Of a stretch of DNA of 36,311 nt, positions 5,932-22,511 are shown in pieces. The DNA is from Actinomycetota bacterium. Its GTDB lineage: Bacteria > Actinomycetota > Actinomycetes > S36-B12 > UBA10799. Numbering within the stretch: position 1 is the stretch's first letter; each line of letters starts with the position of its first letter. The position numbers were made by a program, and so were the translations under genes. The notes beneath the pieces are model-generated. The model did no database searches. It was not told the origin of the DNA and saw nothing but the letters and a program-made list of their open reading frames with translations. Where the stretch lies: assembly GCA_030837445.1 (NCBI GenBank), contig JAUPKM010000286.1, positions 1 to 36,311 on the forward strand, read 5' to 3'.

Positions 5932-5969
5932 CCGGTAACGGCTCGGGGCGAATCCCGAACCGCTACCGG
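5932..5969 (-). promoter_or_regulatory. 16-bp stem-loop between flp and the downstream TadE-like gene (putative attenuator, RNA stabiliser or RBS-occluding structure)
   Basis: ccggtaacggctcggg (5932-5947) and cccgaaccgctaccgg (5954-5969). The two DNA mismatches become G-U wobbles only in the minus-strand (sense) transcript. The 3' arm ends one nt before the ATG at 5930. There is no U-tract. Confidence 0.5.
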
Positions 5970-6024
5970 CATCATGGGCACCATCAGGAGAGCCTTCTCG
6001 TACGATGCTCTGTCGCCTGTACGA

Positions 6025-6273
6025 CTACTGCGCGCCGCCGATCTGCTTGATAGCATCCGAGATCTTCGTGATGAGAGCGTCACCGAGTGTGGTGTTCTTC
6101 TTCATGGCGGCAATGACGATCGCAACGAGGGCGACGACCACGAACATGATGCCCGCGTACTCGACCGAGGCCTGCCCACGGTCGTCCGCGCGGCGGAGCC
6201 TGTCGAAGCAGCCTGCGACGTACACACTGGCCAGGGTGTGCGCGGTGATGGCCGTGCGGGTGATGGCGTCCAT
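6025..6273 (-). CDS. flp: Flp-family type IVb/IVc prepilin
   Basis: 82 aa: a long leader, then DDRG|QASVEYAGIMFVVVALVAIVIAAM (G/xxxxEY processing motif + hydrophobic helix) and a short amphipathic tail. A GAGAGGA RBS lies upstream of the ATG. Confidence 0.85.
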   Translation of the reverse strand: MDAITRTAITAHTLASVYVAGCFDRLRRADDRGQASVEYAGIMFVVVALVAIVIAAMKKNTTLGDALITKISDAIKQIGGAQ

Positions 6274-7138: not shown

Positions 7139-8482
7139 TCATCCCCGGCACACTCCCTGTGGTCTGGTCCGTCCTCGTCCCGGGCGCCGTGCCCGAAGCG
7201 CCACCACCGAGGCCCTCTCGGGGAACCCGTCCGAGAGCCCGTCATCGACGTGCAGCGGGACCACGCCGGTCGCGGCTCCGTCGACCTCAGCGGGGTCGGC
7301 GTCCGGTGATGCCGCCATCGGCACCCGGAGCGAGACGGTCGTTCCGCCACCGGGCCCGCCGCTCACCTCCAGACGGCCTTTGACCCTCGCCAGGCGCTCG
7401 TTCACCCCGACCAGCCCGAAGTGCCCCGCCCGGTACAGGGCGTGAAGGTCGGGCTCGGGCATCCCGCAGCCGTCGTCGACGACGGTGAGGGCCAGGGTGT
7501 CGTCCTCCTGTGACAGGGTGACCGTCACCCGGTGGGCCCCGGCGTGCCGGGCGATGTTCTCCAGCAGTTCCGCGACGGACTTCGCCAGCTCCTCGCGGAC
7601 CGCCAGGGACAGGTCCGGCTCCGTAGGAGGCAGGACCAACTCGGCCTCGACGCCATGAGCGGCCGACCATGCGGACACCGCCTGGTCCAGATGCTCGTAC
7701 AGCGATCCGATCGGGGTCTCCCGCAGATCGTGGATGATCCTGCGGGCCTCGGCCAGCCCGTGCTGGACCGAGGCGGCGAGCAGCTCGGCCTGTCCGCTCA
7801 ACGGGTGGTGCTCGCTCTCCAGCCGGGTCGCCAGGTTCCCGGCGATCAACCTCACCCCGTGCAGGGACTTGGCGAGCGAGTCGTGCATCTCGCGAGCCAG
7901 CCGGGCGCGTTCGGCCTCCTGGAGCCGCTGCCGTTCCAGCGCCACGTACGCCCTGCTCAGTTGCTCCCTCTGGATGATCACCTCGCGCAACCGGAGGCTG
8001 CCGAAGGCGGCGACGCCGAGCAACCCGACCCTGACCACCACGACCAGCAAACCGGCCGACGGCCCGGCGTCCGCCGTCAGGCCGGCGACGGCGAGCAGGT
8101 GCACTCCCGCGAGAACCCCCGTGGGCAGCAGCGCCCCCACCAGGCCCCGTTCGAGGCCGCCCAGGGCGATGCCTGTCGCGATGAAGACGAGGACGAGGCT
8201 GTCAGACCCGATGGTGGCGAGCACCGCGACGGCGGTGACGACGTCCAGGGCTACCTGCACCCATCCCCAGGCACCGTCGATCCGCCGGCCACGCCGGACC
8301 AGCCTGATCAGAGACGGCGTCAGCGCGAGGGTCAGGGTGATCATGTCCACAAGATGGGGTCCGGTGAACACCTGGATCGTCGAGGCGGTCGCGAGCACGG
8401 CCAGCTGGATGTCGGTGAGCATGCCGACGATCGCCGCGAGCGCGCGGTCAGCGGTGTCCGGGGCGGGGGCGGGCTCAGCCAA
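7139..8482 (-). CDS. Sensor histidine kinase (HisKA_3 / NarX-DesK type)
   Basis: Multi-TM N-terminus, H-box REMHDSLAKSLHGV, and an HATPase region ...ELLENIARHAG...DDGCGM...GHFGLVGVNERL. The start is TTG 8482 (8-nt overlap with tadC) or ATG 8422. Confidence 0.85.
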   Translation of the reverse strand: MAEPAPAPDTADRALAAIVGMLTDIQLAVLATASTIQVFTGPHLVDMITLTLALTPSLIRLVRRGRRIDGAWGWVQVALDVVTAVAVLATIGSDSLVLVFIATGIALGGLERGLVGALLPTGVLAGVHLLAVAGLTADAGPSAGLLVVVVRVGLLGVAAFGSLRLREVIIQREQLSRAYVALERQRLQEAERARLAREMHDSLAKSLHGVRLIAGNLATRLESEHHPLSGQAELLAASVQHGLAEARRIIHDLRETPIGSLYEHLDQAVSAWSAAHGVEAELVLPPTEPDLSLAVREELAKSVAELLENIARHAGAHRVTVTLSQEDDTLALTVVDDGCGMPEPDLHALYRAGHFGLVGVNERLARVKGRLEVSGGPGGGTTVSLRVPMAASPDADPAEVDGAATGVVPLHVDDGLSDGFPERASVVALRARRPGRGRTRPQGVCRG

Positions 8483-9365
8483 AGAAACTCCTGAACGTGG
8501 GCAGGTTGGCGAGCACCATCGCCGACATGATCAGGAGCATCGCTCCCGGCATGATGGTCAGGGTCACCACGAGGCTGACCTTCGGGCCGGCCTTCGCCGC
8601 CTTCTGGCGGGCCTCTTGGGCGGATTCGCGGCGGACCTCCGCGGCGATGTCCATCAGGGCCTTGGCCAGCGGCGTCCCGAGTTCCTCCGCCTGGAGCATC
8701 GCGCTGACGAAGGAGCTGAGGGACGGAACGTCGTTGCGGTCGCGCAGGGCGGTGAAAGCCGCGCGCCGGCTCATGCCGTACCGCAGGTCGTTGAGGGTGC
8801 GGCGGATCTCCTGCCCGAGCGCGCCGTCGTCCCGTTCGACAGTCCGTTCCAGGGCGGTCTGCAAGGCGAGACCCGCGCTGACGGTGACGGCGAGGATGTC
8901 GAGCATGTCGGGCAGTTGCCGGGCGATGTCATCCCGCCGGCGGCTCATCAGCGTGCGCAGCCAGATGTCCATCCAGAAGGTGCAGAGGACGACGGTCGGG
9001 ACGGCGAGGAAGGTCCTCCCCAGCAGCCACAGGACGATGCCGACGATCGCCCCGAAGACGGTGAACCCGGCCTTGCGGCGCAGGAACGTGCGGTCCGTCA
9101 TTCCCTCCGGTCGACCGGCGCGGGCCAGCTTGTCGTCGAGTTTCCTGCGGCGTTGCGGGCCGTAGAGGCTGAGCAGGAGCCGCTGGGCCCCGAGGCCCAG
9201 GCCGTCGAGGAACCGAGCGGTCAGGGGCGGTCGCGCCGGGGCCGCAGAGTCGTCGGCGAAGGAGGCTGCGACGGCCTCGAGGCGGGACGAGCGCAGCAAC
9301 GCGACGCCGGCGACAAGCACGGCTAGGGACACCGCCGCGAGCACGGCCATGATGACGACGGGCAT
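8475..9365 (-). CDS. tadC: Tad pilus inner-membrane platform protein TadC (T2SS-F family)
   Basis: MPVVIMAVLAAVSLAVLVAG... with a T2SSF-like core (LPDMLDILAVTVSAGLALQTAL ... LGTPLAKALMDIA). ATGA overlap with the tadB stop at 9365. The 629-aa track ORF N-terminus is Arg/Pro-rich out-of-context reading over tadB. Confidence 0.8.
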   Translation of the reverse strand: MPVVIMAVLAAVSLAVLVAGVALLRSSRLEAVAASFADDSAAPARPPLTARFLDGLGLGAQRLLLSLYGPQRRRKLDDKLARAGRPEGMTDRTFLRRKAGFTVFGAIVGIVLWLLGRTFLAVPTVVLCTFWMDIWLRTLMSRRRDDIARQLPDMLDILAVTVSAGLALQTALERTVERDDGALGQEIRRTLNDLRYGMSRRAAFTALRDRNDVPSLSSFVSAMLQAEELGTPLAKALMDIAAEVRRESAQEARQKAAKAGPKVSLVVTLTIMPGAMLLIMSAMVLANLPTFRSFFG

Positions 9366-10291
9366 CAGACCTCGATCCTGGTCATTCGCTTGATCACTAC
9401 GAAACCGGTGAGGAACAGGGTGAGGGACACGGCGAGCACCAGCCGTCCGATCAGAGTCCCGGCCAGCTGGTCGAGCGCGCCGGGGCTGAGCAGGTTCATC
9501 ACCAGGACGGCGACCACGCCGATCCCGGTGACGGCGTAGCCGCTGAAGATGGCGCCCGACACTGCCGTCCTGACCTCCCGGCGCAGTTCCTTGCGCAGTT
9601 CGAGGGCGTTGGCGATGTTGATCAGGGCGGATACCAGGGCCCCTCCGGAGCGGCTCTGGATCACGAGGGTCTGGACGAGGACGGACAGCTCCCGGGACGG
9701 CAGCCGTTCGACGAGTTCCTCCAACGCCTGGTCCAGGCTGCGGCCGAGGCTCAGCTGGTTCGACACGGTCCTCAGCTCGGTTCCGGCCGGGTCCTCGAGC
9801 TCGCGGGACGCCATCCCGATCGCCGACGGCAGGGCGAGTCCCGCCGAAGCCGCGTTCGACAGCACCCTCGCGACGTCGGGCAGTTGGCTGACGAAGGCCT
9901 CCAGGCGCTTCTGCCGCCGGCTCTCGATCCAGCGGTTGGCGCCCCACCAGACGGCGGCCACGAAGACGAGACCGCCGAGGATGCCGAGCAGCTTCTGGAG
10001 AAGAACCGCTCCGGCCACCCCGATCGCCAGGACCCCGGCGATGTAGTCCAGGGCGTTCCACGTCGTCCCGGCCCCGCGCAGGCGCCGTTGGACCGGCCTG
10101 CCGAACCTGCTGCGGTTCACGGCGCCGGAGAGGGAGCCGTACCAGCGCCGGAGCACCCCGGGGCGGGCCGCTCCGGCTCCGAACTCGCGGAGCTGGCGTT
10201 CCCTGGCAGCGTTGTCGATCAGGATCACCAAGGCGACCAGGACGACGCCGAGAGTGGCCATCAGCTCGACGACGATCAGTACGGAGGTCAT
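9365..10291 (-). CDS. tadB: Tad pilus inner-membrane platform protein TadB (T2SS-F family)
   Basis: 308 aa with TM segments and a T2SSF core (LPDVARVLSNAASAGLALPSAI ... GGALVSALINIA). ATGA overlap with the tadA stop. Confidence 0.85.
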   Translation of the reverse strand: MTSVLIVVELMATLGVVLVALVILIDNAARERQLREFGAGAARPGVLRRWYGSLSGAVNRSRFGRPVQRRLRGAGTTWNALDYIAGVLAIGVAGAVLLQKLLGILGGLVFVAAVWWGANRWIESRRQKRLEAFVSQLPDVARVLSNAASAGLALPSAIGMASRELEDPAGTELRTVSNQLSLGRSLDQALEELVERLPSRELSVLVQTLVIQSRSGGALVSALINIANALELRKELRREVRTAVSGAIFSGYAVTGIGVVAVLVMNLLSPGALDQLAGTLIGRLVLAVSLTLFLTGFVVIKRMTRIEV

Positions 10292-11700
10292 GCCAGCCCC
10301 GCCTGACCGTGGCCGGGGAACGGACCGTACCCGGGGACCGAACCCTTGGCTGAGTACGAACCACTCGCTGGATACGAACCGTTGGCCGAGTAGGAACCGG
10401 CCGGTGGGTAGGAGGCGAAGGCCACGGGCACGGTCTCCCCGCTGAGCAGCAGCCGGTTCTGGATCTCCTCCGGAAGCGGGTACTGGACGAACTGTCCGCG
10501 GACGATCCGGTCGGCGCCGACTGGCTCGGCCTCGAACCGCATCATCGGCACCAGCTCATAGGGCTCACGCCGCCGGGAGACGAGCGCTGAGACGTCGACG
10601 ACCCGCCGGGTCCCGTCCATACCCCGGGCGAGCTGGACGACGATGTCGACGGCCGAGTTGATCTGGTCACGGATCGTGTCGACGGGGAGGTTGAGCTCGC
10701 TCATCGAGGCCAGGGTCTCCAGGCGGCCCATCGCGTCGAGCGCCGAGTTGGCGTGCACCGTGGAAAGGGAGCCCTCGTGCCCGGTGTTCATCGCCTGGAG
10801 CATGTCCAGGGCCTCCCCGCCTCGGACCTCACCGACCACGATCCGGTCCGGCCGCATTCTCAGCGCGTTGCGGACGAGGTCGCGGATGGTGATGGCACCG
10901 CTGCCCTCGACGTTGGCCGGGCGCGACTCGAGCCGGACGACGTGCTCCTGCTGGAGGGACAGCTCGGCGGAGTCCTCGACGGTGACGATGCGTTCCCGGG
11001 CGGGGACGAGGGCGGACAGGGCGTTGAGCAGCGTGGTCTTCCCGGTGCCGGTACCGCCGGAGACGATCACGCTGAGCCGGGCACGTACGCAGGCGCTGAG
11101 CAGCATCACGGTGAGCTCGTCGATCGAGCCACGCTCGACGAGCTCGGGCAGCCGGAAGGGGCGGGGGAACCGGCGGATCGTGAGCGTCGGACCGTTGAGC
11201 GCCAGGGGCGGGATGATGACGTTGACCCGCTCCCCTGTCGACAACCTCGCGTCCACCATCGGGCTGGACTCGTCGACGCGCCGGTTCACCCGGGAGACGA
11301 TCCGGTCGATCGTCTGCATCAGGTGCTCGGTGGAGGCGAAGGCGGTGTGGTGCCGTTCCACCCGGCCGTGACGCTCGACGAACACGTCGTGCGGGCCGTT
11401 GACCATGATCTCGGTGATGCTGCTGTCGGCCAGGAGCGGCTCCAGCACGCCGAGGCCGAGGGCCTCGTCCACCACGCGGCGGATGAACACGGTCCGCTCG
11501 CGGTCCGACATCACCGGACCGTCGATCGAGAGGATCTCGCCGAGTTTGCGCTCCAGGCGTGCCCGGCGCTGCACCTCGCTCAGCCCGTGCAGGCCGTCAC
11601 GGTCGATCTCGGCGAGGAGCCGTTCGAGGTAGACGGAGACGAGGTTGACCGGTTCGCCGCGCTGCGAGCCCTCGTGACTCGCCCGGTCCCTGAGCGCCAT
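10288..11700 (-). CDS. tadA: CpaF/TadA secretion ATPase with a Tyr/Ser/Gly-rich C-terminal tail
   Basis: Walker A VSGGTGTGKTTLLNAL, Asp/His boxes (TVEDSAEL, RMRPDRIVVGEVRG, TGHEGSLSTVHA). ATG 11700 forms an ATGA overlap with the upstream TadE-like gene. Confidence 0.9.
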   Translation of the reverse strand: MALRDRASHEGSQRGEPVNLVSVYLERLLAEIDRDGLHGLSEVQRRARLERKLGEILSIDGPVMSDRERTVFIRRVVDEALGLGVLEPLLADSSITEIMVNGPHDVFVERHGRVERHHTAFASTEHLMQTIDRIVSRVNRRVDESSPMVDARLSTGERVNVIIPPLALNGPTLTIRRFPRPFRLPELVERGSIDELTVMLLSACVRARLSVIVSGGTGTGKTTLLNALSALVPARERIVTVEDSAELSLQQEHVVRLESRPANVEGSGAITIRDLVRNALRMRPDRIVVGEVRGGEALDMLQAMNTGHEGSLSTVHANSALDAMGRLETLASMSELNLPVDTIRDQINSAVDIVVQLARGMDGTRRVVDVSALVSRRREPYELVPMMRFEAEPVGADRIVRGQFVQYPLPEEIQNRLLLSGETVPVAFASYPPAGSYSANGSYPASGSYSAKGSVPGYGPFPGHGQAGLA

Positions 11701-12098
11701 CAGCTGGCCGCCGGAACGCTCGGCGCCGGGAAGTCGGCGCTCCTTGTGATGGTGATCTGGCTCAGCTCGACCACCCCGGGGAATCCCAGCGGGACCGAGA
11801 CCTCGACCGTGCTGCAGATCCCCGCGCATCCGGGGGCCGCACCGATGTCCACCCGCTTGACGTCGATCCAGTCGGGCAGCAGGGCCTGGGCGGCGGCCAC
11901 CCCGTCACCTCCACGAGAGGCCTCCCGCGCGGCGTCCCGGGCGGCCTTGCTCGTGTCCTCCACTGCCGAGGCCACCAGCAGGCCCTCGACCAGCAGGACC
12001 ACGACCACGATCAGGATCGGCAAGATCCCCACGAGCTCGATCGAGATACTGCCGCGGTCACGCCAGGCTTCGCGGTCACACCGGTGACGTCGTGTCAT
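11700..12098 (-). CDS. TadE-like pseudopilin
   Basis: 132 aa with RDRG|SISIELVGILPILIVVVVLLV (TadE-type processing motif + hydrophobic helix). ATGA overlaps at both ends. Confidence 0.75.
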   Translation of the reverse strand: MTRRHRCDREAWRDRGSISIELVGILPILIVVVVLLVEGLLVASAVEDTSKAARDAAREASRGGDGVAAAQALLPDWIDVKRVDIGAAPGCAGICSTVEVSVPLGFPGVVELSQITITRSADFPAPSVPAAS

Positions 12099-13672
12099 GG
12101 CCCCTCCTCGACCACGGCCGCCTCGGCGACGACCTCAAGCGCGTCGGCCAGACCGGGTGCCAGGGCGGGTGTCCCGACCCGGACCCGGACGGTCGCGGCA
12201 TCCGGGCGGCTCACCGTGAAGTCGTCGTCCCAGCCCGCCGGAAGGGCCTGCCGGACGATGTCGTCGAGCGACGTCCGCGCGGCACCCGACGAGTACGCGC
12301 TGACCGCCGCGGTGCGTGCCGCCTCGTCGGCGGCGTGCCGCGCGATCAGGTGCGTCGTCCCCCACAGCAGCATCTGGGCGGCGACCACGCCGAGCAGGCA
12401 CATGACGGCGACGAGGAACGGCAGTTCGATCGTCACCTGCCCGGAGTCGGTCCGTGTCCGGCTGCGGCGGCCCCTGCCCCCGGCGCCCGTCACACTCTTC
12501 GCACCCGGCTGACCCGGCTGGCCGCGGGTGGGTTCCCCGATCAGTCGCAGGGTGCGGGCAACGGCGTCCAGAGCGGCGTGGACCGGGCCGGGCCGCCCTT
12601 CGAGCAGGCCGGTGTTCAGCTGGCTCTCCAGCTTGAAGAAGCTGGCCGGGATCTGCCCCACGATGTGCAGGGGCACGATCTGCTCGGCGAGATCGGCCTG
12701 GACCTCGGCGCGGCGGCTGGTCCGGTTGAGCACGAGATGGACGTGCTCGGACGCGCGGATGCTCAATCTGCGCCACGACTCCACCGACCGCCGGGCCGCG
12801 CGGAGCGACACGACATCTGTGGTCGCCACCAGCAGGACGTCGTCGGCGACCTCCAGCGCCATCGCGGTGGTGTCGTCCAGGCGGGACCCGCAGTCGACGA
12901 CGATCAGGTCGAACTGCATGCGCAGCTGGGCGAGGATCTGGCGGACGGCAGGTGCCGTCACCTCGTCCGCCTGCTCGACGTCGTCCGGGGCGAGCACGAG
13001 GCTCAGGCCGGAGGGGTGGTCGGCGACCACCTCGCGGACGGACCGGTTGGTCAGCTCCCGTGACACCTCGGCGAGGTCGGCCACGGAACGGCGAGCGACG
13101 ACATTGGTGTAGGCGGCGACCGATCCGTTGCGCAGGTCGAGGTCGACGAGGACGACGCTGCGGGTCGGCCGCACGCAGTGCGAAGCGAGCAAGGTGGCGA
13201 GGACCGTCGTCCCGACCCCGCCCTTGGCGCCGGCAACGGCGACCACCCGGCCCCGGGTCCCCGACGACAAGCCGGTGCCCCGGATGTGCTCGCGCAGCGA
13301 GGCGCTCCACTCGGCCGCGCTGATCACGCTCGCCTTCACGCCCTCGACCGACAGGGGCTGGGCGATCACCGACCTCGCTCCGGAGATCATGGCTTGGGCG
13401 AGGACCTCGGGCCGTCCCGGCAAGGCGATCCAGACCACGGCCAGGAACGGGCGGATCCCCACCAGATCCCGGGTGAGCGCGTCGGCCGCGATGGCGGTCA
13501 TCGACTCGTCGAGGATCAGGACGTCGACGTCGTCACGGTCGGCTGCCTGCGCGGCGAGATGGGGATCGGTCACGACATCGACCAGATCGATGTCGGGGGC
13601 TTCCAGCAGGACCGTCGCGAACCGGTCTTTCAGGACCGGTGACTCGCTGACCAGAACCACACGCGCGGCCAT
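12095..13672 (-). CDS. cpaE: CpaE/TadZ-like (Ssd-type) ParA/MinD-family ATPase with a receiver-like N-domain, continuous in frame with a C-terminal TadE-like module
   Basis: N-terminal MAARVVLVSESPVLKD...DVLILDE (pseudo-receiver) and deviant Walker A VVAVAGAKGGVGTT. A GxG/Arg-rich linker follows, then DSG|QVTIELPFLVAVMCLLGVVAAQ (TadE-like). An in-frame GTG at 12493 could start a separate 132-aa product. Confidence 0.75.
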   Translation of the reverse strand: MAARVVLVSESPVLKDRFATVLLEAPDIDLVDVVTDPHLAAQAADRDDVDVLILDESMTAIAADALTRDLVGIRPFLAVVWIALPGRPEVLAQAMISGARSVIAQPLSVEGVKASVISAAEWSASLREHIRGTGLSSGTRGRVVAVAGAKGGVGTTVLATLLASHCVRPTRSVVLVDLDLRNGSVAAYTNVVARRSVADLAEVSRELTNRSVREVVADHPSGLSLVLAPDDVEQADEVTAPAVRQILAQLRMQFDLIVVDCGSRLDDTTAMALEVADDVLLVATTDVVSLRAARRSVESWRRLSIRASEHVHLVLNRTSRRAEVQADLAEQIVPLHIVGQIPASFFKLESQLNTGLLEGRPGPVHAALDAVARTLRLIGEPTRGQPGQPGAKSVTGAGGRGRRSRTRTDSGQVTIELPFLVAVMCLLGVVAAQMLLWGTTHLIARHAADEAARTAAVSAYSSGAARTSLDDIVRQALPAGWDDDFTVSRPDAATVRVRVGTPALAPGLADALEVVAEAAVVEEGP

Positions 13673-14490
13673 CAGCCCTCCGCCCCCTTCGTCGGGGAGG
13701 TCTTGGTCTTCTTCGCCGCCGAGGAGGTCTTCTTCGCCGGCTGGGGGACGGCGGCCGGAACCCTGGCGGCGGCCGGTGCGGGATACACGCCCGTTCCCGG
13801 CACCACGGCGGTCGTGTCACCGCCACCGCGCAAGGCCAGCCGGACCTTCACCGCGAAACTCTCGGCGTAGGCGACCTTCAAGGCGTCCTGGATCGGCAGG
13901 GCGAAGGTCACCGGAACGGCCTTGCCGGAACCGCTTCCGAACGAATCCGAACCGCTGCGCCGGGAAACGGTCTCCGGAAGGCCGACCTCGATGATCAGGG
14001 CGTTGGACACCCATACCTCGGCCGTCCGCTGTGTCTCGGACGGCGTCTGCTGGGTCTTCTCCGCGTCCCGGGTGACCAGGATGTCGACCCGGCTACCAGA
14101 GGCGATCTTGCCGGCCACTCCGGTCTCCGCGTCGACGAGGATCGCCACCTCGCGATAACCCCGGCCGATGCCGGGCCGGTCGACGAACATCCCCCGCTGG
14201 GCGTAGGTGCCGGTGGGGAGGTCATTCGTCGGCACGAGCCCGATCACGTCACGGGCGTCGGTGATCGCCGATTCGGGCAACCACTTCACCGGGACGTCGC
14301 GGAGCTCGACCATGTCGCTGCTGATCACCTGATAGGCACGCACCGGTTTGACCAGCGCGACCACCGAGGTCAAGTTGCCGACCTTGGCGTTGACGTCGCC
14401 GACAAACGTGACGACGGAGAAGAAGACGCTCAACGCGCCGATGGCCGCCAGGGCGATCAGTAAATAGCCGCGTCGCTGTCGAGGATTCAC
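13672..14490 (-). CDS. cpaB: Flp pilus assembly protein CpaB/RcpC (SAF-domain)
   Basis: N-terminal TM RRGYLLIALAAIGALSVFFSVV, a SAF-like segment (VVALVKPVRAYQVISSDMVELRDVP) and GSRVDILVT. The GTG 14490 start forms a GTGA overlap with the upstream ORF. Lys-rich tail. Confidence 0.75.
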   Translation of the reverse strand: MNPRQRRGYLLIALAAIGALSVFFSVVTFVGDVNAKVGNLTSVVALVKPVRAYQVISSDMVELRDVPVKWLPESAITDARDVIGLVPTNDLPTGTYAQRGMFVDRPGIGRGYREVAILVDAETGVAGKIASGSRVDILVTRDAEKTQQTPSETQRTAEVWVSNALIIEVGLPETVSRRSGSDSFGSGSGKAVPVTFALPIQDALKVAYAESFAVKVRLALRGGGDTTAVVPGTGVYPAPAAARVPAAVPQPAKKTSSAAKKTKTSPTKGAEG

Positions 14491-15395
14491 CGGACGGCGC
14501 TCCCGATCGAGTGGGCAGGGTCGCCGTGGGACATCAACTGTGTCCAGGCGGAGGACATTGCTGCGCCAGGAGGCGCAGCCGCAACGACAGGCGAAGTCTG
14601 GGACACCTGAGACGGGGGAACCGGGGTGATACCGCAGAAGGGACACACCGGTGCGGAAACGACGTTTCCGCACCACGAGCAGGGAACGACCCGGACCGTG
14701 GTCCGCAAGTGCTGCGCCAGTTCGTCGAACGTCGCGGGAACGGCAGTCGCCTCGGCCCACCGCCGCGCGCCCCGGAAGGGCCGCTCGACGGATCCGGTCC
14801 GGAAGAACTGCCGCGCGGGGTTGACCTGTTCGAGATCACGACGCCACCGCTCGGACGTCGGATCGTCCGCCGAGGCGGTCACGACAACCGCCGAATCCTT
14901 ACGGTCCCAGACCGAGGGGGTCCAATTCATCCGGACGACGCCACCTTTGTCGCCACGTCCTCCGTCATCGAGGCCCCTGGTATCGAGGCCGAACCGGATG
15001 CCGGGGATCCGGCTGAAAGCGTGTTGAACCACCGACGGCGCCGGATCCTCCAGCTGATGCACGCTGTCCACCACCGCCACCGTCGGACAGGCCGCGGTCA
15101 CCCCGGCAGCGAGGGCTGTGAGGGTGCCGGGCGGGAAGCCACCGACCCGAAGGACCGAAGCAACAACAGGGATCACCGTGGGCCGGAGAGACAGGTGAAC
15201 CATCCGGACATCCGGGCGGATACCCGCCCGTAGATACCGACGAAGCTGGACACCACCTTGTCCCGTCGACGACGTGGTACAGACGAGTGTCCCCGGAGGC
15301 ATGCCCTCCAGCAGACGGAGCAGTTCCTCCGAAGCGGATGGCAGGATGAGGCCACCGGGCACCTGCGGATCTGCGCACGCGAAGACCACCGACAT
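14487..15395 (-). CDS. Hypothetical protein with a C-terminal CxxC...CxxC zinc ribbon; first gene of the tad operon
   Basis: 302-aa ORF with CSWCGNVVSAPVCPFCG near the C-terminus. The stop overlaps the cpaB start. I recognise no family. Confidence 0.5.
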   Translation of the reverse strand: MSVVFACADPQVPGGLILPSASEELLRLLEGMPPGTLVCTTSSTGQGGVQLRRYLRAGIRPDVRMVHLSLRPTVIPVVASVLRVGGFPPGTLTALAAGVTAACPTVAVVDSVHQLEDPAPSVVQHAFSRIPGIRFGLDTRGLDDGGRGDKGGVVRMNWTPSVWDRKDSAVVVTASADDPTSERWRRDLEQVNPARQFFRTGSVERPFRGARRWAEATAVPATFDELAQHLRTTVRVVPCSWCGNVVSAPVCPFCGITPVPPSQVSQTSPVVAAAPPGAAMSSAWTQLMSHGDPAHSIGSAVR

Positions 15396-15960: not shown

Positions 15961-16419
15961 CTAGAACATCAGACCCGTGACGACTGCGGCGGACCCCGTT
16001 GTCAAGAAGATCACAGTGAAGAACCCCCAGTAAAGGACACCACGCCAGATCGCCGGTTTTCTCAGAGCAAAAAACCTTTCCGGATCTTTGGGGTCATACC
16101 AGGCACGCATCTCACGGCCGATCCAGTCTTTGTCGAAAAAGAACGGCACCTCTTTGGTCCAGCCGGCGAACTGGCTCTCGTCGGCAGTTGTCAGGACAAC
16201 ATAGGCATTATACTCATAGTGGCCCGCACTGTCACTGCTATCACCTACCAAGATCGCCTTTACATCCAGAACCCTTGCCCATCCTTCGACCCACCTCACC
16301 TTCCTGATAATCATCTTGATGGTTTCTGTAAAGATCTTAATTAAAGACCAGATGCCGATGCAACAGAATACTGCGCCAGCCAACACCATAATGTCGACAT
16401 GCGTCACCCAGGAATCCAT
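15961..16419 (-). CDS. DUF3592-like two-TM membrane protein (partner S1 of Flp-fusion protein 1)
   Basis: 152 aa with architecture TM - VRWVEGWARVLDV...AWYDPKDPERF - TM. The ATG directly abuts the TAG of the upstream gene (TAGATG). GC is only about 43-48% on three hand-counted lines. Confidence 0.7.
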   Translation of the reverse strand: MDSWVTHVDIMVLAGAVFCCIGIWSLIKIFTETIKMIIRKVRWVEGWARVLDVKAILVGDSSDSAGHYEYNAYVVLTTADESQFAGWTKEVPFFFDKDWIGREMRAWYDPKDPERFFALRKPAIWRGVLYWGFFTVIFLTTGSAAVVTGLMF

Positions 16420-18078
16420 CTACTTCCCCTCACAGTTCGCCAGGGAGACCGCCTGGCCGTCGTTGCGCAGGTCGTGCCCGGTGGCCGAAACCAGTGTCCG
16501 GGTGGTGGAGTTCATCGAGCCGCCCATCTCTTGTCCCGCAATCTCCAGCTCGCCCTCGGCAGCCTCCTTGCCATCGACATACGTGGAGTCCACCATGAAC
16601 GCATCGGCATCCAGTCTGGCAGTCAACGCATCCTGCTGTTCCCAGAAAGTACCTTCACCACCCCCCAACCGAGGGACGGACATTCGCGCCTGTTTCCCAG
16701 CGACGGTACCCCCGGTCGTGACGAAGAACTTGTCGAAGGCCTCACGATTAGCCTTACCCTCCGGAGTGGTGGTATCGAGGTCAAGGATCTTCGTGTACTC
16801 ATGCGCAACGATGCCCCGATCGCTGAAACTACCTTTATCCGATCCTCTGGACGCCTTGAACCCATCGCCAGAGCCAAGTCTCTTCTCGCCGGTCACCACG
16901 AGTTTCTTCGGGTTCCCCGCATCGTCGTAGGTGACCGTGTACGAATCAGAGCGCCCCGCTGATTCCTTGGAAGAAAAGAAGGGAAGACCCCCCACGGCGT
17001 TGTCCCCACCTACGGCCCGGGCCCGCGTGCCCTCAATGTCGCCCTTTACAGATCCAGTGAAGGACGACGCGACGGAATCGGGCTCACCGGTGCCCAGGCC
17101 GACCGTCATCGCTCCCTTGATCTCTACAGACGCCTTGACTTCACCCCGCAGGGGTCCCCCACCCTTGGCGATCTCATCATCACCTAACGCATTCTTGTTT
17201 CCAGTCTTGTACTTAACATCAGCCCCCGCCTCAATCGAGAAAGAGCCCTGCAGATTCAGTGCCACCAGAACCGCATCGGCGGTGTCTTTCCGCTGATCTT
17301 GAGCGCGTTTGGCCAGTTCCTGCTCACTGGGCTTGTGACCGCTGAGGAAGGGAGCAACATCGTCCTGCACCCAGTTCGAGACCCCATCGACCGCGCGGGT
17401 ACCGCCTTCCTCCGCGGTCTGCAGACCGGGGAGGATGATCTGAGCCGTCTGCTGGAATCCGCTGCGACGGTCATCGATGAAGCCCTGGGCAGCCTCCCCT
17501 CCCCCATATTCCTTCGGGAACCGGTAGACATATCCGAGATCTTGATTGAGCGAACCGCCAACCTTGAAGCCCAAAGGGATCGGGAGGTTGGGCAATTCTG
17601 CTTCGAGGCCGATCCCAGAACCTTGGGTGGTCACCACGCTGGCGCCGCCGTCACCGTATTTGGTGATGCTGTCAGCGTCCTTGCGGAACCCTTTCACGCT
17701 CTTGAACTTGACGTTGTAACCCAAGTCCCTGTCACGTTTGTGCTGGACACAGGTGACCTTGAGGTCCTTGGCGCGTTGCTCTGCGGGATTGGAACCGCAG
17801 GTGGCGCCGAAGGCCTCGCAAATCTTCGCCGCGAATACCCCACCAACCGGGGTGAGCAAACCGATCGCCGATCCGGCGACGACAACGGCGACGAACATCA
17901 CCCCGACGTATTCGAGGGAGGCCGCCCCACGATCGCCACGTCGCCAGACACGGTTCACACCCCTCGCGCCAGCAACCGCTTGATGTGGCGCAAAGAGGGT
18001 AGGGAAGGCGCGATCGGGGCTCATGACAACCAGGATCACGACCCGGTCAGGCCCCCCGCGAGAACCTCCGGGCCCCAC
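16420..18078 (-). CDS. Flp-module fusion protein 1: Flp prepilin-like leader and helix fused to about 450 aa of uncharacterised sequence
   Basis: RGDRG|AASLEYVGVMFVAVVVAGSAIGLLTPVGGVFAAKICEAFG parallels the flp product. The rest is Gly/Ser/Thr/Lys-rich with no known motif and ends ...SLANCEGK. The start is uncertain (GTG 18078 or ATG 18024). Confidence 0.7.
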   Translation of the reverse strand: MGPGGSRGGPDRVVILVVMSPDRAFPTLFAPHQAVAGARGVNRVWRRGDRGAASLEYVGVMFVAVVVAGSAIGLLTPVGGVFAAKICEAFGATCGSNPAEQRAKDLKVTCVQHKRDRDLGYNVKFKSVKGFRKDADSITKYGDGGASVVTTQGSGIGLEAELPNLPIPLGFKVGGSLNQDLGYVYRFPKEYGGGEAAQGFIDDRRSGFQQTAQIILPGLQTAEEGGTRAVDGVSNWVQDDVAPFLSGHKPSEQELAKRAQDQRKDTADAVLVALNLQGSFSIEAGADVKYKTGNKNALGDDEIAKGGGPLRGEVKASVEIKGAMTVGLGTGEPDSVASSFTGSVKGDIEGTRARAVGGDNAVGGLPFFSSKESAGRSDSYTVTYDDAGNPKKLVVTGEKRLGSGDGFKASRGSDKGSFSDRGIVAHEYTKILDLDTTTPEGKANREAFDKFFVTTGGTVAGKQARMSVPRLGGGEGTFWEQQDALTARLDADAFMVDSTYVDGKEAAEGELEIAGQEMGGSMNSTTRTLVSATGHDLRNDGQAVSLANCEGK

Positions 18079-18117
18079 CTGCTAGGCCTTCTGACCCAGG
18101 ACACACCAGCGGTCAGG

Positions 18118-18834
18118 TCATTCGTCGGACGCTGAGGAAGATTCCTGGCCGGAGGTTTCCGTCGACCCAGGTGTCACAGTGATCGAGTCGACAACTTTTT
18201 GCCACAGTGGCACGTCGAACTCCGTTGTCGTCGCCGCGAATCTGAACCCGTACTTGGGCAGTCCAGGCGTTTCGACAATCAGTTCGCGATACCGGAAGGT
18301 ACACGGCTTGAGGGGAGTACCGAGCACCGACGTCCCGCCCTCGTCCTCGTACAGGACGTCGAACCAGACCGCGTCCGTGGCTCCGGCGACTTTCACGTGC
18401 TGGGACTTTCCGATCGTGGAACCCTCCAGACCCGCACTCAACTGGGCGCGCAGGACCATCTCACGGATCTCCAAGGGCCCGACCTGCTCACGTTCGACGA
18501 AGCCCAGGAGCACGGGCGGCGGTGTGGACTGCCCGGTGAACGGGACCCCGATCTCCAAAGACGCCTTGGGAGCCATCCGCTGCGCCTCCGGACGCGGCTG
18601 CCACGTTGCCGGGAGGGCAAGAGTGAATCCCGGCCCCCGGCGGACCACCCATCCCTCCGGCACGGCGGCCTTGCTCGTGGGCACCACCGTCGCCTCGGCG
18701 ACCGGCTGGCGATGGACCTCGGTCTCCGACGAGCACCCACCCATCACCGCGATCAGCAGACTCGGCGCCGCGACGGCGATGAGCAGGCGGACGCGGGCGG
18801 ATCTCCGGCCGTTGCCGGCTGTTCGTCGGATCAT
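18118..18834 (-). CDS. Lipoprotein, LpqN/LpqT (PsbP-like) type
   Basis: ATG 18834 with a GGAGGAAG RBS. Lipobox LLIAVMGGCSSE. Motif PEGWVVRRGPGFTLALPATWQPR is typical of this lipoprotein class. Acidic Ser-rich tail. Confidence 0.6.
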   Translation of the reverse strand: MIRRTAGNGRRSARVRLLIAVAAPSLLIAVMGGCSSETEVHRQPVAEATVVPTSKAAVPEGWVVRRGPGFTLALPATWQPRPEAQRMAPKASLEIGVPFTGQSTPPPVLLGFVEREQVGPLEIREMVLRAQLSAGLEGSTIGKSQHVKVAGATDAVWFDVLYEDEGGTSVLGTPLKPCTFRYRELIVETPGLPKYGFRFAATTTEFDVPLWQKVVDSITVTPGSTETSGQESSSASDE

Positions 18835-18925
18835 GGTGCTTCCTCCAGGTGACGGTGCGCCGTCGAGCGCCGTTCGATGGTGCGGGAGGTGACTCGGGTG
18901 GGAGCGCCAGCGCGCCGAGATCTCG

Positions 18926-19390
18926 TCACATCGCCACCAGGACGACAATGCCAATAAGCACCACTGCCGCTCCCAGGAACCCCACGACCACACCCGTGTA
19001 GCCGACGCGCTCACGGGTGACCGATGGCCGGCGCAGGCTGAACCGTGAGGGATCCTCCGGGTCGTACCAAGCCGGATACTCACGGCCGACGCAGGACCGG
19101 GAGAAGCCGGACATCAGGTCACCGGTCCAGGCGGTGACCTCACGCCCATCGGCGGTTCTCACGACGGCGTAGGCGCTGCGAGAGGTGTAGGTGCTGGGGT
19201 CGATGACTCCCTGAACCTCTTTGACGATCTTGACGTCGAGGATCCTCGCTCGCCCCTCGACCCACCTCACCTCCCGGTCCTTCGTCTCCGGGACCGAGGT
19301 ACGGCCGGTCCTCGCGAAGCTGATCGCGAAGTAGACGAGCGCCGCGGCGAAGACAACCAGGAAGGTGACGCCTCCCGATGGGACATTCAT
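18926..19390 (-). CDS. DUF3592-like two-TM membrane protein (partner S2 of Flp-fusion protein 2)
   Basis: 154 aa with architecture TM - VRWVEGRARILDV...AWYDPEDPSRF - TM. It has the same TAGATG junction as S1. By eye it is about one-third identical to S1. Confidence 0.7.
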   Translation of the reverse strand: MNVPSGGVTFLVVFAAALVYFAISFARTGRTSVPETKDREVRWVEGRARILDVKIVKEVQGVIDPSTYTSRSAYAVVRTADGREVTAWTGDLMSGFSRSCVGREYPAWYDPEDPSRFSLRRPSVTRERVGYTGVVVGFLGAAVVLIGIVVLVAM

Positions 19391-21391
19391 CTACTTCCCC
19401 TCACAGTTCGCCAGAGAAACCTCCTGGCCGCCGTTGCGCATGTCGTACCCCTTGGCGTCGATCAGTGACCGGGTGGTGGAGTTCTTCGAACCGCCGATCC
19501 CGAATCCCGAGACCTTCAGATCGCCCCCGCCCTCCGTCTTGCTGTCGGCGTAGGTGGACTCGACCACGAACGCATCGGCGCTCACCCGGGCGGCCAGCGG
19601 AGCCATCCGTGTCGCGAGACTGACCGGATCACCTCCGGCGAGGGGGACGGACATCCGCGCCTGCTTCCCCCCGACATCGACTCCCGTCGTGACGAAGAAC
19701 TGGTCGAAGGCCTCACGGTTGGCCTTACCTTCCGGAGTGCTCGTGTCGAGGTCGAGGATCGTCGTGTACTCGTGCGTGTCGATCTGTTGGTTGAGCCCCT
19801 TACCTCCGATCTTGCGTCCCCCGGGCAACTGGATCCCCCCGCCGTAGCCAGCCTTGTACTCGCCGGTCATCACGAGTTTCTTCGGGTTCCCCGCGTCGTC
19901 GTAGCTGACCGTGTACGAGCCGCCGGCCCCGGCCGAACCCTTGTACGCGATGAAGGGAAGAATCCCCGAGGTGTCGTTCCCACCCGCGATCAGGGTGCCC
20001 TCCGCGTCGACCTTGACCGATCCGGTGAAGGACGAGGCGACGGAGTCGGGTTGTCCCGTGTCCAGGCCGACCGTCATGGCGCCCTTGACCTCCATCGACG
20101 CCTTGGCATCGGCGCGCAGGGCACCACCCGCGGGAACCGTCTCATCGGCCCCGGTCGACGTCTTGTTGCCGGTCTTCTGCTTGACGCCGTTCCCGGCCTC
20201 GATCCCCACGGAGCCCTGCAAGCTCATCGACACCTGGATCGCGTCCGCGGTGTTCTTCCTCTGGTCCCTCTCGCGCTCGGCAAGGTCCTGTTTGCTGGGT
20301 TTGTCCCCGCCGAAGAAGGGAATGACGTCGTCCTGCACCCAGTTCGAGACGCCGTCGGCCGCTCGAGTGGCACCCTCTTCGATGGTCTGCAACTGGGGGA
20401 CGGTGATCTGGGCCGCCTCCTGCCACCCGCTGCGACGGTCGTCGACGAAGTCCTGGGCGGCCTGGTCGCCCCCGTACTCCTGCGGGAACCGGTAGACATA
20501 CCCGAGGTCTCCGCTGATCGTGGCGTTGAGCTTGTACCCCAAAGGCAAGTTCTTGATCGAGCTGCCTCCGTCCAGACCGATCCCGCTGCCCTGGGACGTG
20601 ACCACGGTGGCACTGCCGTCACCGTATTTGGTGATGCTGTCGGCGTCCTTGCGCTGTCCTCGCACCCCTTCGAAGACGACGTTGTAGCCCAGGTCCCTGT
20701 CTCGCTTGTACTGGGTACAGGTGACCTTGAGGTCTTTGGCGCGCTGCTCGGCGGCATTGGTGCCACACGTCGTGCCGAAAGCCTCACAGATCTTCGCGGC
20801 GAACACCTCACCGACCGGAGTGAGCAGCCCTACCGCCGAGCCGACGACGACAACGGCGACGAACATCACCCCGGCGTATTCGAGGGATGCCGCCCCCACG
20901 TCGCTACGCCGGAAACGGGTGAACCGGGACAACGCCGGGTCCGGCGGCTCGGACTCACCGGGGGCGATCAGGATGGCTCCGATGCCCGCCTCGACGATCC
21001 ACCGCGGCAGCTCCCACAGAAGCCGTCCCCAACTACTGCCCGGCTCCCCCGCAAGAAAGACCAAACCGACATATACGGCCCAGGCAACAGCAGCACCGGC
21101 AACAACGCTCGCCAACGCCTCAGTACGACTCGTCGTCCCATACCGACGGCGCAACAACCGAGCCCCGAAAACCCCCGCCACAAACCGCAGAGACGTCGAC
21201 ACCAGGATGAGAACACCCAAAATCACCCCGGGTGACATCACGGACAGGATCTCTCCCGCCGCAGGCAAAACCAGCAATCCCAAAACGAAAGTGAGCCCAA
21301 GAATGATCAACCCGGTGCGCAGAGCCACCCCGACGACAATCGCCGGATGTGGCTCGAAGGCGGCACGGCCATAGGCGCGATCGGAACTCAT
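19391..21391 (-). CDS. Flp-module fusion protein 2, with an extra in-frame about 150-aa polytopic membrane extension upstream of the Flp motif
   Basis: RRSDVG|AASLEYAGVMFVAVVVVGSAVGLLTPVGEVFAAKICEAFG, then about 450 aa that are by eye about two-thirds identical to protein 1, ending SLANCEGK. Possible starts: 21508 (overlaps the neighbouring gene), ATG 21391, or TTG 20932 (short leader only). Confidence 0.7.
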   Translation of the reverse strand: MSSDRAYGRAAFEPHPAIVVGVALRTGLIILGLTFVLGLLVLPAAGEILSVMSPGVILGVLILVSTSLRFVAGVFGARLLRRRYGTTSRTEALASVVAGAAVAWAVYVGLVFLAGEPGSSWGRLLWELPRWIVEAGIGAILIAPGESEPPDPALSRFTRFRRSDVGAASLEYAGVMFVAVVVVGSAVGLLTPVGEVFAAKICEAFGTTCGTNAAEQRAKDLKVTCTQYKRDRDLGYNVVFEGVRGQRKDADSITKYGDGSATVVTSQGSGIGLDGGSSIKNLPLGYKLNATISGDLGYVYRFPQEYGGDQAAQDFVDDRRSGWQEAAQITVPQLQTIEEGATRAADGVSNWVQDDVIPFFGGDKPSKQDLAERERDQRKNTADAIQVSMSLQGSVGIEAGNGVKQKTGNKTSTGADETVPAGGALRADAKASMEVKGAMTVGLDTGQPDSVASSFTGSVKVDAEGTLIAGGNDTSGILPFIAYKGSAGAGGSYTVSYDDAGNPKKLVMTGEYKAGYGGGIQLPGGRKIGGKGLNQQIDTHEYTTILDLDTSTPEGKANREAFDQFFVTTGVDVGGKQARMSVPLAGGDPVSLATRMAPLAARVSADAFVVESTYADSKTEGGGDLKVSGFGIGGSKNSTTRSLIDAKGYDMRNGGQEVSLANCEGK

Positions 21392-21470
21392 GCCGCCAGA
21401 ATCACGACCCGGCCAGACCCTCCGCGAGAGCCGCCGGACCCCACCGGATGGGCCTTCGGGCCCAGGACGC

Positions 21471-22511
21471 TCAGGCTCCGCGGACCCCTCCGGCGGGAAC
21501 GCCACCATCAGCCGCCGGGGAGAACGGCAGGAGCCGGTCGAGCAGATCCTGCATGGTCACCAGGCCCAGCAGGGCTCCGCCGTCCATGACGATCACGAAC
21601 TGGCTGCGGCGCCGGCGCATCGTGGCGAGCGCGGGGTAGACGCGGTCGGCGGCGTCCAGGGTGAGGACGGGTCGCATCAGGTCCTCGGCGGTCGTGCCGG
21701 AGGTGACGTCGAGAGCGTCACGGACGTGGACCACGCCGACGACGTCGGTGCCACGGCGCACGACCAGACGCAGGTGGCCGCTGTCGCGCGCGACCCGCCG
21801 GATCCGCGCGGCGTCGTCGCCCAGGGCGACCCCGGCCAGCGACGACCGCCGGACGACATCACGCAGGGTGACGTCGTCGAGTTCGAGCACGGTGAGGAGC
21901 TGGGCCCTCCGCGTCTCCTCCAGGGCACCGACCTCGGCCGAGTGGTCCACGAGGGCTTGAAGGGTCTGGGGGGTGTGGCCGACGGCCACCTCGTCGACCG
22001 GTTCGACGCCGACCCACCGCAGGCAGGCGTTGGCGAGCCCATTGAGGCCCCTCAGCAAGGGGCGAGTCAGGATCATGAACACCCGCATCGGGACGGCGAG
22101 CAGGATCGCCGCCCGCTCCGGGTGGGCGATGGCCCACGACTTGGGAGCCATCTCGCCGACGACGAGGTGGACGAAGGTCACCGCGACGAGGGCGAGCAGA
22201 AAGGCGACGACGTCAGCGGTGCCGGTCGGCATCCCCCACGCCTCGAAGAGCGGCAGCAGGACGTCGTGGACGGCGGGTTTCGCCACCGCCCCGAGGCCGA
22301 GGGTGCACAGGGTGATCCCCAACTGCGACCCGGCGAGCAGAAGGGACAGGTCCCGGGAGCTTCGCAGGGCGACCCGGGCCGCCGCACTGTCCTGCGCGGC
22401 CCGCTCCAACCGGTGACGGCGCGCGGCGATCATGGCGAACTCCACCGCCACGAAGAGGGCGCTCAGCACGATCAGGCCCGTGGCCACCGAGAACGCCAGC
22501 AGAGGCGACAT
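21471..22511 (-). CDS. DUF21 (CNNM) + CBS-pair membrane protein (hemolysin-like / CorB family)
   Basis: N-terminal LSALFVAVEFAMIAARRHRLE and LLAGSQLGITLCTLGLG (DUF21), followed by CBS-pair-like segments. Confidence 0.8.
   Translation of the reverse strand: MSPLLAFSVATGLIVLSALFVAVEFAMIAARRHRLERAAQDSAAARVALRSSRDLSLLLAGSQLGITLCTLGLGAVAKPAVHDVLLPLFEAWGMPTGTADVVAFLLALVAVTFVHLVVGEMAPKSWAIAHPERAAILLAVPMRVFMILTRPLLRGLNGLANACLRWVGVEPVDEVAVGHTPQTLQALVDHSAEVGALEETRRAQLLTVLELDDVTLRDVVRRSSLAGVALGDDAARIRRVARDSGHLRLVVRRGTDVVGVVHVRDALDVTSGTTAEDLMRPVLTLDAADRVYPALATMRRRRSQFVIVMDGGALLGLVTMQDLLDRLLPFSPAADGGVPAGGVRGA

Follow-up and report, generated by a model that had tools for sequence, protein, structure and literature searches.

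Contig JAUPKM010000286.1 of the Actinomycetota assembly GCA_030837445.1 (lineage S36-B12; UBA10799) carries, beside a locus for Tad pili, two diverged gene cassettes on the minus strand. We analyzed the whole stretch of 36,311 nucleotides, here called the window. Each cassette consists of a large gene, the product of which begins with a module resembling an Flp pilin, and a small gene for a DUF3592-like membrane protein, and a lipoprotein gene separates the two cassettes. We name the large proteins A and B, and we favor, with a probability of roughly one half, the view that they are modular minor pilins of the Flp class that are displayed by the adjacent Tad machinery.

Large gene A (16420..18024, minus strand) encodes a precursor of 534 amino acids (aa), its open frame extending to 18078, and is followed by small gene A (15961..16419, minus strand), which encodes a DUF3592-like protein of 152 aa. 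Large gene B (19391..21391, minus strand) has an NCBI-annotated start that yields 666 aa (P0158), with an open frame reaching 21508, and its small partner (18926..19390, minus strand) encodes a DUF3592-like protein of 154 aa. The intervening lipoprotein gene (18118..18834, minus strand) encodes 238 aa with the lipobox MIRRTAGNGRRSARVRLLIAVAAPSLLIAVMGG/C, ending VMGG/C. Around the processing site, the product of open reading frame (ORF) 16420..18078 (minus strand) reads RGDRG/AASLEYVGVMFVAVVVAGSAIG and that of ORF 19391..21508 (minus strand) reads SDVG/AASLEYAGVMFVAVVVVGSAVG, where the slash marks the predicted cut, and G/AASLEY is common to both. These Flp-like sites are present as the initial annotation claimed, and the other measurements that it gave by eye agree with ours. 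Cleavage after the Gly would leave mature proteins of 501 aa (A) and 500 aa (B), which are 66.0% identical (330/500; two-thirds had been claimed), and the small partners, put at one-third, are 34.9% identical. The four conserved Cys occur in both copies, are invariant in 30 relatives, and are conserved at ≥90% in 100. In both cassettes the large gene ends in CEGK and TAG, directly followed by the ATG of the small gene (tgtgaggggaagTAGATG), and the 27 nucleotides across this junction that were said to be identical, ctggcgaactgtgaggggaagtagatg, are the same in both copies.

Each mature protein divides into an Flp module with a C-x6-C loop, a linker, and a beta-rich C-terminal domain (all coordinates on the minus strand). 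In A, the Flp module (AASLEYVGVMFVAVVVAGSAIGLLTPVGGVFAAKICEAFGATCG) occupies 17791..17925, the codon for Gly(-1) lies at 17926-17928, and the linker and C-terminal domain, the latter delimited on an AlphaFold2 model, occupy 16420..17790. In B, the “leader” is a module of four transmembrane (TM) segments (20894..21391; 166 aa, ending RFTRFRRSDVG, with the Gly(-1) codon at 20894-20896). It is followed by the Flp module (AASLEYAGVMFVAVVVVGSAVGLLTPVGEVFAAKICEAFGTTCG; 20759..20893), which includes a C-x6-C loop and was identified with hhalign and by the invariant G(-1), E(+5), Y(+6), and two Cys, and then by the linker and a C-terminal domain of about 440 aa (19391..20758), which ends ANCEGK before the TAG and the fold of which was inferred from the model of its paralogue.

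The resemblance between the cassettes is one of homology and not of chance. A repeat search found that about 95 nucleotides around the start of A (18006..18102) match the start region of B (21373..21468) at 84-90% identity, so that the coding regions, at 71-80%, are less similar than the 5' leader; the same leader precedes the large-gene orthologue on the closest related contig (L006:9925-10000). Because the ATG and the 5' leader are homologous to those of B and L006, and A begins MSPDRAF where B begins MSSDRAY, ATG 18024 is the most likely start of copy A, giving a precursor of 534 aa with a 33-aa leader. The processing sites first proposed from the ORFs were upheld, and the starts were not: that of A has been moved to ATG 18024, and the apparent leader of B is the membrane module. 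The homology of the start regions further implies that A is a B-type gene minus about 398 nucleotides, the missing piece being the first 165 residues of B, and copy A is indeed without the 4-TM module. The leaders of gene A (18025..18102, minus strand) and gene B (21392..21468, minus strand, placed by nucleotide homology to that of A) share with L006 about 80 nucleotides containing two predicted stems (GGGCC-CGAA-GGCCC and a longer one; in A, a GGGUC-AGAA-GGCCU hairpin and then the second stem). No covariation was seen among these sequences, which number only three, and an Rfam scan of the region found no match; the conserved leader may be a regulatory or processing element.

The ratio of nonsynonymous to synonymous substitution rates (dN/dS) between the large copies is 0.34, which indicates that selection maintains both. 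That copy A might be a pseudogene was considered, there being no copy-A entry among the protein-database matches, and was rejected on account of its intact ORF and this dN/dS. The related contig L006, the TadA of which is 90% identical, carries a B-type cassette only, implying that cassette A is the extra copy, situated between the lipoprotein gene and a convergent DUF192 gene (PF02643; 15573..15923, plus strand, by Pfam match). The genes of cassette A have a GC content at third codon positions of 0.71 and 0.65, versus 0.86 and 0.82 in cassette B (the tad genes and cassette B together range from 0.82 to 0.89), and an overall GC content of 0.61 and 0.51. Cassette A could go back to an old duplication and have evolved under different constraints, or it could have been acquired from a relative. 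In the related loci L001, L003-L006, L010, L012, and L013, as in the window, a DUF192 gene, often on the opposite strand, accompanies the tad locus or the large gene.

The adjacent Tad assembly operon, cpaB/rcpC-tadZ-tadE-tadA-tadB-tadC (8475..14760, minus strand), was recognized by Pfam matches, including a score of 30.5 bits against PF07811 for tadE (11700-12098); tadA lies 4.6 kb from large gene A and 7.6 kb from large gene B. After the operon, in minus-strand order, come genes for a histidine kinase and a response regulator and then the small flp prepilin gene (6025..6273, minus strand), which has weak DUF4244 and Flp_Fap matches and the product of which reads DDRG/QASVEYAGIMFVVVALVAIV, with a 33-aa leader and a 49-aa mature form. 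A TadG-like gene follows (5292-6083, minus strand; PF13400, 26.9 bits, residues 71-120), with a lipoprotein gene and then an OmpA-family gene beyond it. The longest TadG-like ORF and the flp ORF overlap by about 59 nucleotides, so the true TadG-like start must be internal. The cpaB ORF (13672-14760) overlaps by about 270 nucleotides with a Zn-ribbon ORF (14487-15395, minus strand; 302 aa, C-terminal CxxC...CxxC, Pfam-negative). This Zn-ribbon ORF is conserved directly upstream of cpaB in L001-L007 and may well be a so far unnamed part of tad operons of this actinobacterial type.

Profile comparisons identify the N-termini of the large proteins as true Flp modules, and as complete ones, in line with the original claim. 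Aligned with hhalign, 22 N-terminal modules matched 12 actinobacterial Flp pilins at 98.9% (E = 2.1e-17) over 48 columns, which reach from the last part of the leader through the hydrophobic TM helix into the second helix. Among 1.84 billion representatives, a profile built from 13 family members retrieved actinobacterial Flp pilins of 70-82 aa at profile positions 20-78 (E = 1e-8 to 1e-5). Searched against 5.8 billion proteins, a profile of the N-terminal module matched Flp pilins at E values down to 6e-12, one of them with PF04964 and one named Flp family type IVb pilin in UniRef; this search gave small Flp pilins only and no wider set of cargos. BLASTP, in which composition correction masks the hydrophobic part, aligned the window's Flp with protein A over no more than 17 residues at the cleavage site (E = 0.004), and profile methods were needed to see the remainder.

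The residues expected to serve processing and assembly are the most conserved positions of the family in spite of an overall identity of about 20%. The pattern G-x4-[EDQ]-x followed by an uncharged 18-mer occurs in 101 of 115 full-length relatives (position +5 is E in 96 of the 101 and +6 is Y in 88), and in most of the others the start seems to have been called wrongly. The family alignment of 13 sequences shows no variation at G(-1), E(+5), or Y(+6); over 100 sequences sharing about 20% identity, only G(-1) and the four Cys reach at least 90% conservation. The TadE of the locus has E-L at +5/+6 where the large proteins have E-Y, which makes the latter Flp-type and not TadE-type. Consistent with this, the large proteins gave no match to PF07811 or PF13400 and none to vWA, with a library that detects the locus's own TadE and TadG-like proteins. 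They depart from the Flp class in their mature size of 501 and 500 aa and, for B, in the 166 aa that precede the cut, compared with 33 aa in A and in the Flp of the locus.

Close relatives of the large proteins number 11 in 5.8 billion proteins, and the profile search recovered 189 clusters at E ≤ 1e-3, of which 26 were at E ≤ 1e-30. All named members are annotated “hypothetical protein” (in Luteipulveratus, Ornithinimicrobium, Actinomadura, Spirillospora, and Angustibacter), and two family members bear the JGI label Flp pilin. The genomic survey proposed in the initial annotation, of whether homologues of the C-terminal domain lie near tad genes, gave a uniform answer: all 11 loci with enough flanking sequence (L001-L007, L008, L011, L012, and L013) are tad-linked. 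In L001-L007 the large gene stands a few kilobases upstream of cpaB-tadZ-tadE-tadA-tadB-tadC, at the head of a co-directional series made up of its partners, the Zn-ribbon gene, and this operon. In L008, L011, and L013 its place is the other end of the locus, with Flp and OmpA, and a distant relative is divergent beside cpaB in L012. The gene is mostly single-copy, stable, and syntenic over at least three actinobacterial orders, and it is duplicated and diverged in the window and in L001.

The 4-TM module and the lipoprotein accompany the large gene more constantly than the DUF3592-like gene does. Hydropathy of the B module shows three strong TM segments and a weak one, with a basic cytoplasmic loop, RRRYGTTSRTE. 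The module is likewise fused to the large protein in P0002, P0004, P0010, P0025, P0028, and P0077, and it is a separate ORF by the large gene in L001-L005, L007, L012, and L013. Judged from this distribution, the 166 aa that precede the cut in B are no long leader peptide but a conserved module of the membrane. The RFTRFRRSDVG junction would be cytoplasmic, where prepilin peptidase cuts, provided that the weak fourth segment crosses the membrane. The idea that the module is itself a hidden prepilin peptidase was rejected: it has no conserved Asp pair, four segments only, and no A24 match. Homologues of the lipoprotein adjoin the large gene in L001-L006, L009, and L011, and L012 has a lipoprotein at the same position. 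The protein encoded at 18118..18834 has no Pfam match at E ≤ 1, its best NCBIfam match is LppU at 14 bits, and the earlier label “LpqN-like” could not be supported, since PF10738 did not match and the lipobox alone was seen.

The small partners of 152 and 154 aa have, as described, two terminal hydrophobic segments in a TM-beta-TM arrangement and the signature AWYDPxDPxRF, of which WYDPxDPxRF had been noted in both. Against PF12158 (DUF3592) they score just under the cut-off of 25.3 bits in B (24.7 bits, E = 3.9e-5) and further below it in A (16.6 bits, E = 0.013), and their orthologues in L006, L008, and L011 have precomputed PF12158 matches of varying strength. A DUF3592-like gene adjoins the large gene in the window (twice), L001 (twice), L004, L006, L008, and L011 and is nearby in L013; there is no room for one beside the large gene in L002, L003, L005, and L007. 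The “bicistronic cassette” with a DUF3592 partner, as it was first presented, describes the window and not the family, because the partner is missing in 4 of the 11 loci.

For the C-terminal domain, scans of the full proteins against Pfam and NCBIfam and profile searches of the PDB found no family. The Pfam and NCBIfam scans gave no enzyme or toxin motif in it, PADLOC gave no match, and a PDB sequence search with profiles A1 and A4 returned nothing significant. The lone hint of a fold other than a barrel is a weak match of 56 residues (E = 0.003, 19.5 bits), at positions 281-336 of profile A4 (about 281-336 of mature A), to the insect juvenile-hormone-binding protein 2rck, which has a TULIP fold; we regard this match as a lead and not a finding. 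This beta-rich cargo is known only in the context of this Flp module, and the family alignment confirms that its extreme C-terminus is conserved rather than variable.

An AlphaFold2 model of protein A, built with a 30-sequence alignment, reached a predicted local distance difference test score (pLDDT) of 81.6 and a predicted template modeling score (pTM) of 0.77. In it a short helix comes after the Flp helices (residues 3-25 and 27-39) and leads to four long strands and then to a helical insert of 70 residues. About eight further long strands precede a pair of helices with short hairpins, and two more long strands end the domain, making about 14 long strands in all. The invariant Cys at mature position 60 precedes strand 1 and the invariant Cys 499 follows the last strand, which suggests a Cys60-Cys499 disulfide tying both ends of the domain together. 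Foldseek searches of the PDB with two models gave outer-membrane barrels only (FadL at E = 1e-9, TodX at 1.5e-6, autotransporter beta-domains and CymA at 7e-5 and weaker), with query-normalized template modeling (TM) scores of 0.20-0.27, root mean square deviations of 16-25 Å, and 6-10% identity; a search of BFVD gave nothing at E ≤ 1e-3. One face of the strands is polar and the other moderately hydrophobic, an aromatic girdle is absent, and the domain contains 15% Gly. A barrel of the FadL/TodX or autotransporter type was rejected in view of the TM scores near 0.2 and of strand faces that are merely moderately hydrophobic; the hosts are actinobacteria, which we presume to have a single membrane. 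As modeled, the topology is a long up-and-down meander for which no solved structure has the same global fold, and a sheet wrapped round its own helices fits the strand faces better than a lipid-facing barrel would.

Three distant matches share the N-terminal module only, including the loop K-I-C-x-A-x-G-x-x-C-G, and carry other cargos. P0135 (L010:8001-9659; 552 aa) consists of the Flp module with C-x6-C, a coiled linker, PT-HINT, and a Tox-REase-2 nuclease. Its gene directly follows the OmpA gene with which a tad locus ends, and the next ORF downstream, acidic and of 122 aa (L010:9673-10041), occupies the position of an immunity gene. In P0113 (471 aa) and P0127 (483 aa; L014:4324-5775), the module precedes a calpain-type cysteine protease (PF00648, E = 6.5e-22 and 3.5e-29, respectively); the L014 contig is too short to show tad linkage.

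These observations lead us to favor the model in which the large proteins are modular minor pilins of the Flp class, processed by a TadV-type peptidase and displayed on the Tad pilus, with the membrane partners as escorts. In this model the precursor would insert into the membrane with its basic leader cytoplasmic, the leader of B being the whole 4-TM module. A prepilin peptidase of TadV type, which would have to be encoded outside the window, would cut after the invariant Gly. The new N-terminus, AASLEY with Glu at +5, would then dock the Flp helix into the Tad machine in the manner of an ordinary Flp. The disulfide-stapled head of about 440 aa would be carried at the pilus tip or sparsely along the fiber and presented as the interacting surface of the pilus, and the curved sheet around helices in the model of A hints at a function in binding more than in catalysis. 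Until its assembly, the bulky subunit would be held or accompanied by dedicated membrane partners, namely, the 4-TM module, the lipoprotein, and, in loci that have one, the DUF3592-like protein.

We prefer this reading because the conservation of the residues for processing and assembly, the completeness of the Flp module, the strict linkage to tad, and the swapping of cargos fit both the concept of modular pilins (PMC8179133) and the recent proposal of large minor pilins at the tips of Tad pili (PMC12075869). Its foundations, namely, Flp homology, the processing motif, tad synteny, and co-conserved partners, are established by comparison of sequences; cleavage, incorporation into a pilus, location at the tip, and the roles of the partners are inferred. 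The invariance of the four Cys would suit an exported domain that contains disulfides, and the fused topology of B is compatible with cleavage at the cytoplasmic face, provided that the weak fourth segment crosses the membrane. The occurrence of the same Flp module on a calpain, a HINT toxin, and a beta-rich head matches the cut-and-paste pattern of modular pilins.

Several points weigh against it. Pfam models Flp_Fap, TadE, and Tad gave no match at E ≤ 10 to the N-terminal 88-90 aa of A and B. The genuine small Flp of the locus also falls under the PF04964 cut-off (15.2 versus 32.2 bits), so this check, which had been suggested at the outset and in which no model scored, does not discriminate for the large proteins; PF04964 is insensitive for this Flp clade and weakly matches 2 of 100 relatives. 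The window ORFs that were scanned with Pfam include none for a prepilin peptidase (Peptidase_A24). The structural neighbors, exclusively barrels at TM scores of 0.20-0.27, give no positive support to an adhesin. The subunits of known Flp filaments have no globular domain, and a subunit here has 500 residues. To our knowledge, a 166-aa polytopic leader is without precedent among prepilin peptidase substrates, and we know of nothing in pilin biology that explains three kinds of membrane partner.

A broader form of the same idea is that the Flp hairpin (about 50 aa) with C-x6-C is a portable tag by which bulky cargo is loaded onto the Tad pilus of Actinobacteria or sent through it, fused forms being cut internally. 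The cargos known so far are the beta-rich head, calpain proteases, and a nuclease toxin released by HINT. If so, cleavage of a B-type protein at the internal site of its five-segment precursor would release a 4-TM protein and a pilin, and the actinobacterial Tad system would also be a device for effector display or delivery. We hold this possible, if doubtful.

The large proteins could also be effectors exported through the Tad machine, for which the Flp module would be a trafficking tag: Tad would extract the protein and release it or present it to a neighboring cell, the beta-rich domain would act on the target membrane or envelope, and the DUF3592-like protein, the 4-TM protein, or the lipoprotein would protect the producer. 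This idea was raised in the initial annotation together with that of cognate immunity, and it is kept alive by P0135, in which the same N-terminal module joined to PT-HINT and Tox-REase-2 lies in an equivalent tad locus next to the 122-aa acidic ORF, and by the calpain-protease versions of the module. The amphipathic strands rich in Gly, Ser, and Thr, whose Foldseek neighbors are all membrane beta-barrels, and the faster divergence of the small partner (35% identity versus 66% for the large protein) could be read in its favor. However, no toxin or enzyme domain was detected in the C-terminal domain, the strand faces are moderately hydrophobic with no aromatic girdle, the C-terminus is conserved and not polymorphic, and the gene is stable, syntenic, and mostly single-copy over at least three actinobacterial orders. 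The immunity part of the idea is weakened further, as absence of the DUF3592 gene beside the large gene in L002, L003, L005, and L007 is a poor fit to an obligatory immunity function. We consider an effector unlikely.

Equally improbable in our estimation is a fixed part of the Tad machine of a monoderm cell. Here the Flp-like helix would dock to the platform or to the base of the fiber, and the beta domain, the 4-TM protein, the lipoprotein, and OmpA-type peptidoglycan binders would form an envelope-spanning collar or conduit, a substitute for the secretin complex that these single-membrane bacteria lack. The RcpC of diderm bacteria makes up a conduit in the periplasm beneath the secretin (PMC12307814), and the Pfam scan of the window found CpaB/RcpC without a secretin. 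A collar would accord with the constant place of the large gene, with its membrane and lipoprotein partners, at the head of the cpaB-tadZ-tadA operon, with the recurrent fusion to the 4-TM protein, which suggests a stable complex, and with the barrel-like character of the predicted fold in the structural alphabet of Foldseek (3Di). Against this, the conserved G(-1), E(+5), and Y(+6) speak for processing and filament packing and not for a static anchor, the window and L001 each have two diverged copies of the gene, which stands at differing ends of the locus according to the order, as is more typical of an accessory or variable subunit than of a core part, and in other species the N-terminal module bears a toxin or a protease.

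Very improbable is an uncleaved surface protein that retains the Flp-like segment as a signal-anchor and functions independently of Tad, for although no peptidase gene lies nearby and the Flp segment of B is the fifth hydrophobic segment of a polytopic protein, neither the near-invariance of Gly(-1), Glu(+5), and Tyr(+6) at about 20% identity nor the adjacency to tad genes in 11 of 11 loci would be expected of a mere anchor.

Among described systems, the large proteins are most like the Flp1/PilA-type major pilins of Tad (type IVc) pili, with which they share the leader Gly, Glu(+5), Tyr(+6), a hydrophobic first helix (about 20 aa) and a short second one, homology in profile-profile comparison, and a tad locus. 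They differ from them in that mature Flp pilins have about 45-60 aa and no further domain, whereas the large proteins have 500 aa and are unmatched by PF04964, and in that Flp pilins have a short leader where copy B has a 166-aa membrane module. In architecture they may be likened to archaeal non-pilin proteins with class III signal peptides, such as the sugar-binding proteins of the Sulfolobus bindosome, which are large, have a prepilin-type N-terminus, are processed by the prepilin-like peptidase, and are held at the surface by a filament-related system; these belong to another domain of life, carry another cargo, and are not Flp-type.

The closest precedents for a grafted cargo are PilB and PilC of Streptococcus sanguinis, in which a bulky functional module is joined to a pilin module by a short linker (PMC8179133). 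They resemble the large proteins in the combination of pilin module and cargo, in the expected display at the tip, and in the use of several cargos on one module, but they are type IVa pilins with the IPR012902 motif, a globular pilin fold, and vWA or lectin cargo, in contrast to the minimal Flp hairpin and unannotated beta domain found here. The survey of modular pilins was limited to the IPR012902 motif and does not mention Flp or Tad (PMC8179133). Large minor pilins of Tad systems have been proposed as pilus tips in Myxococcus and in pathogens (PMC12075869). These TadG/KilN-type tips are likewise large, prepilin-like, and tad-encoded, with a disulfide-bearing C-terminal domain without known fold and a proposed place at the distal end; they differ in having TadE/F/G-type N-termini and a pilin-like beta-domain and in forming heterotrimers, whereas the large proteins are Flp-type (E-Y), and the window has its own TadE and TadG-like gene besides. 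Polymorphic toxins (PMC3482391) are built like the window proteins in that a module for trafficking comes first, the cargo is C-terminal, and a small gene follows downstream, but their toxin C-terminus is variable, where that of the window proteins is conserved and contains no toxin domain. The 2012 catalogue of their trafficking modes mentions neither pilin nor Flp nor prepilin (PMC3482391).

Literature searches on DUF3592, GxxxxEY, modular Tad pilins, prepilin toxins, and Actinoplanes pili found no such proteins described, in agreement with the earlier statement that neither an Flp fusion of this kind nor its pairing with DUF3592 was on record. Modular pilins and large Tad minor pilins are already known, and neither PMC8179133 nor PMC12075869 covers a module of the Flp class. 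The literature that could be searched contains no description of an Flp pilin with a 440-residue head, of the fused 4-TM leader, or of the dedicated set of partners.

Elsewhere in the window, the region 27826-30123 / 32251-35721 (minus strand) contains a GmrSD-type restriction endonuclease gene (PF03235 and PF07510), beyond which are genes for a DUF4143/AAA_14 ATPase, an RNA ligase (PF09414), and an HD and AAA_33 protein. Together these genes form a cluster that looks defense- or repair-like and has no relation to the large genes.

Flp pilins are the textbook minimal pilins, and Tad fibers are thought to gain function through minor pilins of the TadE/F/G type. If the large proteins are modular Flp-class minor pilins, the evolutionary tinkering that produced modular pilins would reach type IVc pili, and the beta-rich head would be a concrete candidate for the part with which monoderm Tad pili touch their surroundings. 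The fused 4-TM leader bears on how far the substrates of prepilin peptidase can depart from a short leader, and the relatives with other cargos raise the possibility of toxin delivery by pili in Actinobacteria. The family has no Pfam or NCBIfam model at present, and defining it would improve the annotation of many actinobacterial tad loci.

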